Positions 503-21,088 of a stretch of 64,000 bases of DNA are shown one piece after another. The notes below the pieces were generated by a model, which saw only the letters and a list, made by a program, of their open reading frames with translations, searched no databases and had not been told where the DNA came from. The translations under genes were made by a program, and so were the position numbers. How positions within the stretch are numbered: position 1 is the first letter of the stretch; every line of letters starts with the position of its first letter. Source of the DNA: Microbotryum violaceum (lineage: Eukaryota); assembly GCA_001244265.2 (NCBI GenBank), contig LN717261.1:1441591-1505590 (forward strand), read 5' to 3'.

Positions 503-802
503 TGTGAAGAGTCCACTCTCAGCTCGACAGGGGCGCCTCGGTCGTTGCGCGAGCCCGCTAGCCCGCCCCCTGCGGTGAGGACTTAGACGCGCGCGACTGC
601 CTCAGCGCGCCAGCGATTTCACCCGCTGCTGGGCCTATCCCAGCGCGGGCCCCCCTTTTTGTTTCTTAGCTTCCTTCTCATCACTTCTGTTTGACTCTCA
701 ACCTCTCCTGACAGTCGTGGTGATCGTCTTATAGGTACGCTGAAATAGATCACTTCTGTTTGACTCTCAACCTCTCCTGACAGTCATGGTGATCGTCTTA
801 TA
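503..802 (+). repeat. Copia family-1 LTR (TG...TA) with duplicated 3' end (680-733 / 749-802)
   Basis: Starts TGTGAAGAG and ends CTTATA. Inverted homolog at 2227-2541. Followed by PBS-like GGTTATTCGCCC. Confidence 0.9.
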
Positions 803-814
803 GGTTATTCGCCC
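803..814 (+). promoter_or_regulatory. Primer-binding site (copia half-tRNA-iMet type, degenerate)
   Basis: GGTTATTCGCCC abuts the LTR end and resembles the copia-type PBS GGTTATG(A/G)GCCC. Confidence 0.7.
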
Positions 815-831
815 ATCGACCTACCGCTGGC

Positions 832-16400: not shown

Positions 16401-18191
16401 CACAACCGGTAGCTCCATGTCCTTTGCCTACGCCGCCCTCGCCTGCTCAATCCGTATTGGCCGACCCCATCAACCTCTTGCCACGCTCGGGTGATGTTGC
16501 TTCCACCTGCCTTGCGCAGGATTTCCCTGACGACCTGGATGCTGCGCTTCACTCGCCTTTGCCCGTCGCCTACCTTGCCTCTGGAGCCGCTGCTCTGCTC
16601 TCCACCTCGCTCGCTGACCCGTCGGAACTGATCGCACCTGCCCGGGACCCTCCTCACTGGCGCACTGCGATGGCAACCCCACAAGCAGACGAGTGGCGTC
16701 TCGCTGCCCAGGCCGAATTCGACTCGCTATCCCGCGATTTCTCGGCCTTCACACCCATTGATGAGTCTCTCGTGCCCGTGGACTCTAAGGTTCGGTTCAC
16801 GCTTTGTCTTCCGCACGAAACGCGACCAACACGGCTGTATCAAGTCTTACAAAGTCCGACTGGTTGCTCGCGGTGACTCTCAGCGTTCAGGCATCGACTT
16901 CGACGAGACCTTTGCACCCGTTGCCAAGTTCACCTCCATTCGCGCACTCCTGGCCCTTGCAGCCGCTCATGGGTACCACGTCCACCAGGCTGACATCGAC
17001 AAGGCCTATCTCCACGGTAAACTGGACACGCCTCTGTACATTTGCGTGCCCGAAGGGATCTACATGCCCGGCAAGGTCCTCCAGCTGCACCGGTCCCTCT
17101 ACGGTTTGCGCCAGGCTGGACGTATCTGGAACAACGAGATTGACTCCGCTTTGTCGGCTCTTGGCTACGTCGCCACGGAGTCTGACCACTGTGTTTATGT
17201 CCGAACTGCCGGTGATGAGCGCCACTATATCGCGCTCTACGTCGATGACTTGCTCATGATCAGCCCTTCCCTCCCAGAGATCGAGCGTACCCTCCAGGGC
17301 CTCGAGCAGCGCTATGGTGTCAAACGCCTTGGTGAGGCAGAGTACGTCCTTGGTATCCAGATTCGGCATTCTGCCGATGGCGCCATCTCCCTCAGTCAAG
17401 AGCAGTACCTCAAGGACGTCCTTGCTTGTTTTGGTATGTCCGATGCCCACCCTGTCACCACGCCCATGCAGGCCGATCTCCGCCTCGAAGTCGAGCTTCA
17501 GCCCACCCCATTCCCGGATCGCACTCGGTACTTGCAGGCAATCGGCTCCCTCATGTACGCATCGACCGGTACTCGCCCCGACCTGGCCTACACCGTCGGT
17601 TACTTGGCTCGGTTCTCTCAGTCACCATCTGCCGCTGCCTGGGGCGCTGTCAAGCACACTTTTCGCTACCTCGCTGGCACTCTGTCTCACGGCCTCCGCT
17701 ACGCTTGCGGGGATCCAGCGCCCTTGGTTGGCTACTCCGACTGTAACTGAGGTGCTTGCGTCCTATCTTCAAAGTCGACCATGGGTTACACCTTTGTCTT
17801 TGCAGGCGCGGCCGTCTCGTGGTCATCTCGCCTCCAGTCCCGGGTTGCCGACTCTACTTGCGACGCCAAGTACCTTGCCTTGTCACACGCTGGCAAGGAG
17901 GCTATCTTCTTGCGTCAACTCTTCGGTGAGCTTGGGCTTCCTCCCTCCCAACCTGTCCTCATCTATGGCGACAACCAAGGCGCCAACGCTCTCACCAAGA
18001 ATCCGGTCTTCCACGCTCGCACCCGGCACATTTGTCTCCGCGAACACTTTGTCCGGGATATGGTTTCCCTTGGCGACATCAGTGTCCAGTACATTGCCAC
18101 CAGCGAGATGACGGCCGATATTTTCACCAAGGCTTTGTCTCGCAACCTGTTTGCTTGGCATCGCGATCAACTTGGTATCTGCTCTCCCTGA
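13424..18191 (+). pseudogene. Copia gag-PR-INT-RT-RNaseH polyprotein with stops, frameshifts and a MITE insertion
   Basis: [65 protein letters not shown]. Premature TGA at 13901 and 17748. Confidence 0.93.
15812..16210. mobile_element. Non-autonomous TIR element (MITE), 64-bp perfect TIRs, TGT...ACA ends, 5-bp TSD CTGAC; possibly Ginger-type
   Basis: 15812-15875 is the exact reverse complement of 16147-16210. CTGAC at 15807-15811 and 16211-16215. Confidence 0.93.
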
Positions 18192-21088
18192 TACTCAAAG
18201 TCACAGGGGTGTGAGATTGACAACCTCCTGTGTTTCCTTCTCGCATCATGTCTCCTTTTCTCGGTCTCGTTTTACTTCCTTTGACCTGCCTTTCACACCT
18301 TAGCTCTCTTCCTTTCTGGGCTGGGTCCGTGCGCCTGACACAGGTGGCTGGCCCAGCCGCGCGCTAACCCGAGCCAACTGGCTCTGCGCTCCTCTCTCTC
18401 CTGCTCAAGCAACTTCTTGGTCTGGTCTCCTTGGTCCAACAATCAGAGCCTTACCACCGCTTGAGCAGGTGAGCACTACACTTCCTTCTTCCTTTACTTT
18501 TACTAGCTATTATAACTCACTGTAGTGCTTGAGCAGGTGTGTAATTGAAGCAACTTCTTGGTCTGGTCTCCTTGGTCCGTCGATCAGAGCCTTACCACCG
18601 CTTGAGCAGGTGTTTGTCGCAACTCCATACATGGCAGCCTCACCCCAGAGGCGTGAATCAGTGCCAGAGGAGTAGAGTAGAGCAAGGATACCCTCCTTGA
18701 TGGTGCAATTGCTGCGCTTGACATGTCCATTTTGTTGGGGCATGTAAGGGATTGTGAGTTCCCAACGAATGCCTTTGGCAAACAGAAGTTGACAAAGTTG
18801 CGCAGGGTGAACTTACCGCCATTGTCAGAGTGGATGGTCTTCACTTTGTCACCGGTGACATTCTTGACTTCAAGAATCCAGTTGCGGAGGCACGGGAAGA
18901 CATCACTTTTGAGTGCAAGTAGGATACACCAGTGCTTGCATGAGAAGTTGTCAATGATGACCAGCATGTATCAATGGCCACCGAAGGTAGGCCGAGGCAT
19001 TTGCGCTACATTGACGTGGATGAGATCCAGACGGCCAGAGGCAATGGACTTGGAACAGGCAAAGGGGAGGGCATGCACTTTTGAAGCAAGACAGGCATTG
19101 CGGTAAAAATCCTGGAGCTTCCTCATCCGAGTACACCCAATCCACCCCAGTAACCAAGCCTCTCTGCACAATGTTCTTGATTTGCACAACGGGCAAGTGC
19201 GCAAGACAATGGTGCAGAGTCAGCAAGGGCACTTTGGAAGGGGTGGCAAGAAGGGCTCTTGGCGTACAGGGCCAAGCGCCAAGGCGTAAAGGTTGTTGCC
19301 AACGGCTTGAGCGGTAGCAACAATGGTGCCAGAGGGCCGGGTGATGCAGGCACGACAAGCTTCAAAGGAGATGTGGTACCCAAGTTGATCCAATTGAAAG
19401 ACGGACAGCAGGTTGCATGGCAGATCCGGCACCAGGAGTGCGTTGGACACGACAATGGGGCCTTTGGCGGTGTGGATGTGAATGGTGCCGCAGCCAATGG
19501 AGGAGAGGGAACCGGCCACACCCCCAATGCGTGGCCCGGCGACGGCGTGAAGCTCGGAGAAGAGGTCCCTGTTGTTTGTCATGTGGTGATTGGCGCCAGA
19601 GTCGAGGAGCCAAGCTGACTTGCGAAATGGTGATGGTGTCGCGAGGAGGCAGGCCGTTAATGACACAAACTCGGGTGTGTCCACTGCGGCTGGGGAAGCG
19701 GCGGGCTGGGAGACCTTGCTGTTACCATGCTTGTTCTGGGCGTCGGCGGTACGGCGAGCTCGGTAGGCGGCAGCCCAGGTGGTGTCAGGACACTCCTTCA
19801 GCCAGTGCATCTTGCGGCAAGACGGGTTCGGGCACGGTCTTGAGCAGCCATGGCAGGGTTGGGGGGGTGGCAACGGCGGCAGCTGGAGCCTCGATAGGAT
19901 GGGCTTTGACGTCGCGGTAGAGGCGTGCAAAGATCTTGGTGGCGGAAGGCATTTTGGCGGAATCACCTTGAGCAGCGACAAAGGTGGTGCGCCAGGCGTC
20001 AAAGGACGAGGGAAGGCGAACGAGTAAGTGCGACGCAAGCAGAACGCTCACAGTGACCTGGGAGTCTTCCAGCAGTCGGGTGTTGTTCTCGAAACTGTTG
20101 CAGAATTGGAGGAACAGGTCTGGAGTGACGGGCACAGAGTCGGAACTCAAGAGCCGCTGAATGACCGGGAGGAGATCGACGGCGGAGACGGTGCTATAGC
20201 ACTCGCGAAGCGCCAGCCAGACCTTGGGTGCAGTGAGTGGGTTGTCGAGGTAGGGCGACAGGCCTGGGAGGACAGCTTGCGAGTCGACGGAGGCGCAAAG
20301 CGAGGAGCAGGCGTAGTGGTCCCACAGAGGGACGTACGAGGCAGGCCAAGACTCGACGGGGACACCCGTCTTGAGGTAACGGACGACGCCGGATGGGAGG
20401 CGTGAGCGGATCGTGAGGACCCAGTCTTGGTAGCCGGACAAGCTGCGGAGCAGCTCGGTCGTTGTGAAGGCCGCAGCGTGGGTGGGTGGGTGCAAGGGCG
20501 GCACGTCGGGCGGAGCGGGTGTGGTGTTGGGAGGCTTGGCCTCAGGCGCGGAGGCGCCGGCGGCGGACATGTTGGGAAGGGCAAAAAAGGAGAGCGAAGG
20601 GCGGACACGGATGTGGCCGCGCTGGTGGCTCGGTTGGGCTTATAACCTATAGAGTTGTAGCGACTGCTCAAGCGGTGGTAAGGCTCTGATCGACGGACCA
20701 AGGAGACCAGACCAAGAAGTTGCTTGAGCAGGAGAGAGAGGAGCGCAGAGCCAGTTGGCTCGGGTTAGCGCGCGGCTGGGCCAGCCACCTTTGTCAGGTG
20801 CACGGACCCAGCCCAGGAAGGAAGAGAGCTAAGGTGTGGAAAGACAGGCCAAATGGGGGTAAAATAAGACCAAGAAAAGGAGACATGATGCGAGAAGGAA
20901 ACATAGGAGGCTGTCAATCTCACAGACTGGTCCGCCAACGCGTACGCTCTTGACGCAATAGTCCTCGCTTTGCCTCATGCCATTCTCCGATTCCGTTCTA
21001 TCTCGACTATCTGCATCCCAATAATCGAACCTTGAAGCGACAACCTCGTAGCCGATGTCAACGACCTAGTCCTCCAATGTACAACATT

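Follow-up and report, generated by a model that had tools for sequence, protein, structure and literature searches.

Within a 64,000-nucleotide stretch of the Microbotryum violaceum (Eukaryota) genome (NCBI GenBank assembly GCA_001244265.2, contig LN717261.1, positions 1,441,591 to 1,505,590 of the forward strand; the whole stretch is referred to here as the window), the long terminal repeats (LTRs) of three retrotransposon lineages carry a short intron-like cassette, in which two copies of a duplicated segment, named DR1 and DR2 for the first and the second copy, enclose a spacer. The order DR1-spacer-DR2 with a GT...AG register on the sense strand was found in all six long LTR copies. The cassette observation is real and non-random: its splice signals are more complete than chance would provide, it has persisted across the split between the families Copia-2 and Copia-3, and within one Copia-3 insertion a long LTR has been converted to a short one. 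We tentatively regard the cassettes as genuine introns of the leader, spliced at least in part, and we rate this reading at slightly less than an even chance.

Organization of the LTR cassettes

The first 21 kb of the window form a nest of degraded LTR retrotransposons, and ten LTR copies of the cassette-bearing lineages, all in the window, were examined (Table 1). The cassette coordinates and anatomy proposed by an initial annotation of this DNA were all found to be correct on re-examination of the sequence, and the copia LTRs that it listed as precisely lacking the cassette, at 2227, 12592, 13028 and 20648, are each short by exactly one period. Twenty sequencing runs contain part of the stretch; none is recorded as RNA, and six of them (X15 to X20) were taken as RNA by guess. 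The contigs of four runs, X1, X15, X17 and X18, were compared with positions 480-18700, and in all four the differences between window and contigs are dominated by transitions (A>G, T>C, C>T, G>A).

In Copia-1, DR1 and DR2 match over 57 nt with one mismatch at a period of 69 nt. The GT after DR1 is the start of a 12-mer resembling a primer-binding site (PBS), and the acceptor AG straddles the LTR boundary, comprising the final LTR base and the first base of that 12-mer. The 12-mer after the copia LTRs may pair with the anticodon stem-loop of initiator tRNA-Met; a tRNA scan of the window found no tRNA genes. The short Copia-1 LTR has a duplication of its own, of 68 nt with an 83-nt period (2345-2495), which is missing from the long 5' LTR and shows no GT..AG register on either strand.

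In Gypsy-1, a 24-nt repeat recurs at a period of 58 nt, and the 34-nt spacer is identical in all three copies. No short form of Gypsy-1 was found in the 64-kb window, and one with a variant repeat was read in a contig of the DNA run X1, from the letters between the joint sides (3323 to 3387). DR1 and DR2 are 91% identical over 67 nt at a period of 144 nt in Copia-2, and 95% identical over 65 nt at a period of 141 nt in Copia-3, where shorter introns with the same donor could end at 18525 (57 nt, CTCAC then TAG) or at 18536 (68 nt, CAG). The part of the LTR remaining 3' of the cassette measures 0, 14 and 20 nt in Copia-1, Copia-2 and Copia-3, and approximately 76 nt in Gypsy-1. No copies of the spacers were found outside these LTRs in the 64-kb window, which offers no source for them.

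The duplicated junctions differ in where the GT comes from. AG/GT is present at both of them in Copia-1 (GGT after both copies) and in Copia-3 (GTG after both), while DR2 is followed by TT in Copia-2 and by TG in Gypsy-1, so that in those two the GT is contributed by the spacer. The initial annotation had argued that a collapse of repeats cannot explain a GT directly after the first repeat; the argument stands for Gypsy-1 and Copia-2, and falls for Copia-1 and Copia-3, in which the GT lies within the repeat. The latter situation is consistent with a plain length polymorphism of the LTRs, generated by duplication and by precise collapse through template switching or unequal recombination, with splice-like signals that are unused, or used in traces, and have no role. 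We consider this explanation quite possible, without favouring it. Local duplications are indeed common here, with an 83-nt period in the short Copia-1 LTR, a 69-nt period in a Copia-2 LTR and a 9-bp duplication in the 3' LTR of another element, Gypsy-2. In addition, 10 of the 12 nt of the Copia-1 filler (737-748) are identical to the element's own gag at 1222-1231 in the same orientation (E 0.15 window-wide), as a template-jump patch would be; the filler may be such a patch, or the match may be due to chance.

Splice signals compared with chance expectation

A set of 18 local direct-repeat pairs, comprising the six cassette copies and 12 others, was scored on both strands for GT..AG registers, the splice-signal criteria being a donor of the form GTRNGY and a CTNAY motif located 8-40 nt before the AG. 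All six cassette copies combine the register with such a donor and such a branch-like motif, and always on the sense strand of the element. Among the 12 non-cassette pairs the register occurred in four strand tests, two of them being both copies of one Copia-2 repeat, and the GTRNGY donor was absent from all of these registers as well as from an extra antisense register of the Copia-1 cassette. When random window segments were duplicated with matching geometry (40,000 per geometry, three geometries), the register together with GTRNGY arose in 1.5%, 0.55% and 1.7% of the trials, and the full pattern including the branch-like motif in 0.5%, 0.09% and 0.4%. The full sense-oriented splice signals of the cassettes exceed chance expectation, and a mere length polymorphism leaves unexplained why AG/GTRNGY and a branch motif stand on the sense strand in all three independent cassettes and in none of the 12 other pairs.

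The donor is GTGAGC in Gypsy-1 (all three copies), Copia-2 and Copia-3, and GTACGC in Copia-1, on the sense strand throughout. Both hexamers also open introns with RNA support in the window, GTACGC that of an internal intron of Gypsy-1 and GTGAGC that of a host-gene intron at about 11982-12064 (its ends are imprecise). In Copia-2 and Copia-3 the branch-like motif occurs only in variant form, as CTCAC or CTTAC before CAG, or as CTCAC 6 nt before TAG in the short option. Donor, branch-like motif and acceptor are kept in all three Gypsy-1 copies and in both long copies of Copia-2 and Copia-3, in line with the conservation that the initial annotation had set as a check. In this small sample, the cassette lengths of 58, 69, 141 and 144 nt (57 or 68 nt under the shorter options) compare with 67-95 nt for four host introns and 109 nt for the internal intron of Gypsy-1.

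Table 1. Retrotransposons, LTR copies and candidate introns in the window (positions counted from its first nucleotide)
Feature	Position	Strand	Description
Copia-1	from 503	+	interrupted at ~2225 by a reversed Copia-1 LTR
Copia-1 5' LTR, long form	503-802	+	300 bp; PBS-like 12-mer next, at 803-814
Copia-1 DR1	680-736	+	57 nt: final 54 nt of the LTR plus GGT
Copia-1 filler	737-748	+	12 nt
Copia-1 DR2	749-805	+	LTR end plus the first 3 nt of the PBS-like 12-mer
Copia-1 candidate intron	735-803	+	69 nt; donor GTACGC, CTGAC 23 nt before the TAG acceptor
Copia-1 LTR, short form	2227-2541	-	without the 69-nt period; separate duplication upstream
Gypsy-1		-	rearranged chromodomain element; LTR copies 3238-3552, 4675-4989 (inverted), 6819-7041
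Gypsy-1 3' LTR, long form	3238-3552	-	candidate intron 3371-3314
Gypsy-1 LTR, long form	4675-4989	+	inverted copy within the rearranged element
Gypsy-1 candidate intron	4856-4913	+	58 nt; donor GTGAGC, CTGAT 13 nt before the CAG acceptor
Gypsy-1 internal intron	5594-5702	-	109 nt; donor GTACGC, GCTGAC, acceptor CAG; alternative acceptor 5 nt downstream
Gypsy-1 5' LTR, long form	6819-7041	-	truncated; candidate intron 6952-6895
Copia-2		-	5' LTR 9159-9644, further LTR 12592-12933
Copia-2 5' LTR, long form	9159-9644	-	
Copia-2 candidate intron	9316-9173	-	144 nt; donor GTGAGC; boundaries of the initial annotation; DR1 9317-9380, DR2 9173-9236
Copia-2 LTR, short form	12592-12933	+	
Copia-3	13028-18629	+	complete; nested in another Copia-3-type element with 5' LTR 20648-20924
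Copia-3 5' LTR, short form	13028-13306	+	279 bp; target-site duplication CATGG at 13023-13027
Copia-3 3' LTR, long form	18210-18629	+	420 bp; same insertion; CATGG at 18630-18634
Copia-3 candidate intron	18469-18609	+	141 nt; donor GTGAGC; boundaries of the initial annotation
Second Copia-3-type 5' LTR, short form	20648-20924	-	
Gypsy-2	~22029-27040		fifth LTR element; protease, reverse transcriptase, RNase H, integrase; LTRs ~190 bp, no cassette

Collapse of the cassette within a single insertion

The 5-bp CATGG flanks and an empty-site contig of X1 that joins 13020 to 18628 confirm that Copia-3, at 13028-18629, entered an older Copia-3-type element as a single insertion. This one insertion is discordant, its 5' LTR being short and its 3' LTR long, as the length-polymorphism explanation would allow. 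In a new copy, one strong-stop DNA gives rise to both LTRs; given this shared origin, the discordance must have arisen in plus-strand synthesis or after integration.

At 15807-16210, Copia-3 contains a 404-bp insertion that resembles a miniature inverted-repeat element, with terminal inverted repeats of approximately 63 nt and GTCAG as a 5-bp flank. In X1 and X18, contigs run straight from 15806 to 16211, and other copies are therefore without it.

Kinship and evolution of the cassettes

The initial annotation had counted four separate families. Copia-2 and Copia-3, which are approximately 83-85% identical in LTR and body, share a homologous spacer (alignment score 60, reached by none of 2000 shuffles), and this reduces the count to three independent cases. 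Because the spacers are homologous, the cassette was inherited from the common ancestor of the two families. The 16 nt at the donor end of the spacers are identical and the block from AACTCACTGTAG (containing the CTCAC motif) onward is kept, with some 30 strongly diverged nt in the middle; a third spacer variant with the same donor end was found as a loose end in X1 and X15. As the cassette has outlived the family split, and as such repeats are often deleted during reverse transcription, the long form would have to be favoured by selection or regenerated. A length polymorphism without function leaves unexplained how an unstable duplication outlived the Copia-2/Copia-3 divergence with its donor and acceptor-side ends conserved.

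Four columns of the aligned repeats are diagnostic, both Copia-2 copies having one state and both Copia-3 copies the other, and no column supports an orthology of DR1 to DR1. DR1 and DR2 thus evolve in concert within each family, a pattern that fits repeated interconversion of long and short forms. The initial annotation had proposed a mechanism under which such concerted evolution would be the expected outcome: splicing takes place in the 5' copy, the strong-stop cDNA, with a single repeat, pairs with the second repeat of the unspliced 3' R region, and the intron is rebuilt in each cycle. It is also in keeping with this mechanism that the acceptor of Copia-1 is completed by the base that follows the LTR, since the 3' LTR copy would then usually stay unspliced. 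Recombination between co-packaged long and short RNAs, however, explains the concerted evolution equally well, and several points weigh against the mechanism. The whole cassette would have to belong to R and polyadenylation to occur 3' of DR2, and the few nucleotides of LTR left there in the copia elements make this unlikely for Copia-1, which has no LTR sequence 3' of its acceptor; a premature and misaligned first-strand transfer would have to be the rule; and identical LTRs would be expected, in contrast to the short 5' and long 3' LTRs of the one Copia-3 insertion. In addition, restoration is unnecessary if unspliced RNA is packaged. The proposal is therefore not supported, and we regard it as very improbable.

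Beyond the window, a viral-contig scan returned no match to the DR1-donor junction, and a viral-contig search with the Copia-3 reverse transcriptase found no relative. Four metagenome stretches that matched the DR1-donor junction were discarded as unrelated chance matches on inspection.

Evidence from RNA-like contigs

In a gene at about 11.2-12.1 kb, the contigs of X17 and X18 have CT..AC joints, which correspond to GT..AG introns of 67-95 nt on the minus strand, and the contigs of X1 and X15 lack these joints. Because these joints and a similar one in Gypsy-1 are present in X17 and X18 and absent from X1 and X15, we treated the former two runs as RNA-like and the latter two as DNA-like. The gene itself, a spliced one on the minus strand, lies between the elements at about 10700-12500, and a 2566-nt contig of X17 joins across four introns of 67-95 nt.

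Elements here can carry real spliceosomal introns: the internal intron of Gypsy-1, with 5593 joined to 5703, is joined in X17 and X18, and in neither X1 nor X15. It removes the protease active-site region. In the window copy of Gypsy-1, a gap of 1 nt, filled in other copies, lies between two frames (...LADSG and ASSSF...), and by a reading made by hand the junction would put a stop codon directly at the joint in the frame of that region, which would yield a Gag-only message.

For the Copia-3 cassette, three contigs of X17, among the loose ends listed, have a DR-type end joined directly to sequence from 18527. These ends fit the removal of the 68-nt GT..AG segment 18469-18536, or alternatively a variant at the DNA level; a related arrangement occurs in DNA contigs of X1 and X15, where a DR is followed by a 7-nt filler and another DR (joint 18613 to 12856; loose end 12857). 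Both observations would also suit a different unit in Copia-2 and Copia-3, namely a 58-nt segment flanked by a 10-nt direct repeat, which would be an intron-like sequence acquired by insertion or capture (for example as an intron-generating element, through reverse splicing of an intron or as a patch of host pre-mRNA), such that the real intron is 57-68 nt long and the DR duplication is a separate event. The X1 and X15 form lacks this 58-nt segment. The segment opens with GTGAGC and contains CTCAC at 6 nt before a TAG, and the 10-mer that terminates DR1 occurs again after it; the size of the segment fits the host introns, and the Copia-2/Copia-3 spacer is not homologous to the DR, with no significant similarity between them (p 0.36 and 0.10). 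The segment has, however, no other copy in the 64-kb window, its 10-nt flank may be a partial third copy of the DR, and the idea is inapplicable to Copia-1 and Gypsy-1, in which the acceptor lies within DR2. We therefore consider a captured intron improbable.

Returning to the reading of the cassettes as spliced leader introns, several points weigh against it. Only ten LTR copies were read. The discordant Copia-3 insertion demonstrates that conversion from long to short occurs without splicing, at least once, and the short forms consequently need no splicing. No cassette joint was present among the 15 of 30 joints listed for the contigs of X1, X15, X17 and X18, a result that suits a length polymorphism, and in 8 further joints read from the letters between the joint sides the sole cassette match was the DNA short form of Gypsy-1; this comparison had power only for Gypsy-1, given that spliced copia RNA would align without a joint to the short LTRs in the compared stretch. 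RNA contigs cover 18546-18547, which would be retained sequence under the Copia-3 boundaries of the initial annotation, and the organism code of the RNA-like runs differs from that of the DNA run compared. Finally, repeat-diagnostic differences did not place the crossover points, as DR1 and DR2 have no fixed differences and all of those present look private to single copies. Coverage of Copia-2 is uninformative about splicing, with no cover by X17 and X18 at the spacer (9301) and almost none on the body. An estimate of the shares of long and short forms from depth at 18546 versus 18571 was dropped, contig depth being a measure of neither copy number nor expression.

A model for the origin and inheritance of the cassettes

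Each cassette is a tandem duplication of the final 24-65 nt of the LTR leader, immediately 5' of the PBS, in which a short filler separates the copies. The AG/GT junction has a consensus donor, and the second copy provides a branch-like motif and the acceptor. Under the leader-intron reading, a small leader intron would in this way have been created in one step, and its removal would restore the exact short-form leader. Anything between the transcription start and the PBS enters both LTRs when unspliced RNA is the template, and a cassette in that interval would be copied into both whenever unspliced genomic RNA is reverse-transcribed. Because this copying puts the cassette in both LTRs, no special restoring step is needed. 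Short forms would arise by precise deletion of a repeat, through template switching of the reverse transcriptase or through DNA recombination, and may also come from the copying of spliced RNA.

That the cassettes are leader introns born by tandem duplication, inherited via unspliced genomic RNA and lost by template switching, perhaps also by the copying of spliced RNA, is the reading that we prefer, at a little below even odds. We infer that the cassettes are spliced, that splicing benefits expression, and where transcription starts and the poly(A) site lies. In its most complete version, which is rather doubtful as a whole, the model would state that retrotransposons here repeatedly built a complete LTR-leader intron by duplicating the AG/GT-containing end of U5; that splicing restores the ancestral leader at no sequence cost, while unspliced RNA transmits the intron to both progeny LTRs; that spliced RNA and template switching yield short-LTR lineages; and that the repeats are held identical by recombination of long with short RNAs packaged together, so that the intron in effect becomes heritable and partly self-renewing.

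Should the cassettes be spliced, they would represent a natural and recurrent one-step birth of introns by tandem duplication, caught while still polymorphic, and would illustrate how retroelements can depend on introns for expression and still replicate through RNA; the long and short LTRs would then record which RNA species was reverse-transcribed. They would also be the first case found of a whole intron housed in an LTR, as judged from a phrase search of the literature for introns in, within or inside LTRs, which returned no natural case. Should they be unspliced, what remains would be LTR length polymorphism of the ordinary kind, in which the excess of splice-like signals is left unexplained.

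Other features of the window

The 3' LTR of Gypsy-2 has its 9-bp tandem duplication near the end, and the 5' LTR lacks it. Further downstream, an inverted repeat pair of approximately 140 bp (46758-46898 and 51046-51188, 4.3 kb apart) may belong to another mobile element and is adjoined by a block of 84-248-bp direct repeats at 51612-53869.

Comparison with known systems

According to a review, reverse transcription in retroviruses frequently removes direct repeats of such a size, and does so precisely (PMC3187697), which lends support to a length polymorphism. In that review, the enhancer repeats of retroviral LTRs, which at 50-75 bp resemble the DRs, are described as unstable (PMC3187697), and deletion is said to be possible in DNA-dependent synthesis, which would give discordant LTRs (PMC3187697). 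As in retroviruses, one repeat and the intervening sequence were lost precisely in the four short copia LTRs. Such deletion explains the short forms and the discordant Copia-3 insertion, but accounts neither for the consensus splice signals nor for a duplication that has persisted so long.

Some retroviruses, such as HTLV-1 and the foamy viruses, have a splice donor inside R, and engineered split-intron retroviral vectors exist. These systems share with the cassettes the presence of splice signals in the LTR and the coexistence of a leader intron with the packaging of unspliced RNA. In HTLV-1 and the foamy viruses, however, the LTR contains the donor alone, with the acceptor located far downstream, whereas the cassettes hold donor, branch and acceptor within the LTR or end on its last base.

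Among LTR retrotransposons, BARE reportedly uses alternative splicing of its RNA to produce a Gag-only message. In Arabidopsis Ty1/Copia elements, alternative splicing around the protease domain likewise leads to a Gag-only message (PMC5580714), and the internal intron of Gypsy-1 resembles that case in its position at the protease region and in a frame that would end at the junction. Gag-only introns are similar to the cassettes in that a genuine intron would be kept in the genomic copies because the unspliced RNA is the replicating form; they differ in lying in the coding body rather than wholly in the LTR, and in not being bracketed by direct repeats.

Intron gain by tandem duplication is said to have occurred in the RdRp gene of potato. 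A general model, in which introns are gained by tandem genomic duplication of an AGGT-containing segment, is presented by Hellsten et al. 2011 (PMC3265369). The cassettes differ from the introns of this model in that they lie in the untranslated LTR leader instead of a host coding exon, occur in three element lineages and include a filler of 12 to about 80 nt, and their splicing is what we infer. The layout is otherwise the same: the intron terminates in a copy of the upstream exon's end, the donor is at the first junction and the acceptor ends the second copy, and removal of the intron would restore the unduplicated sequence.

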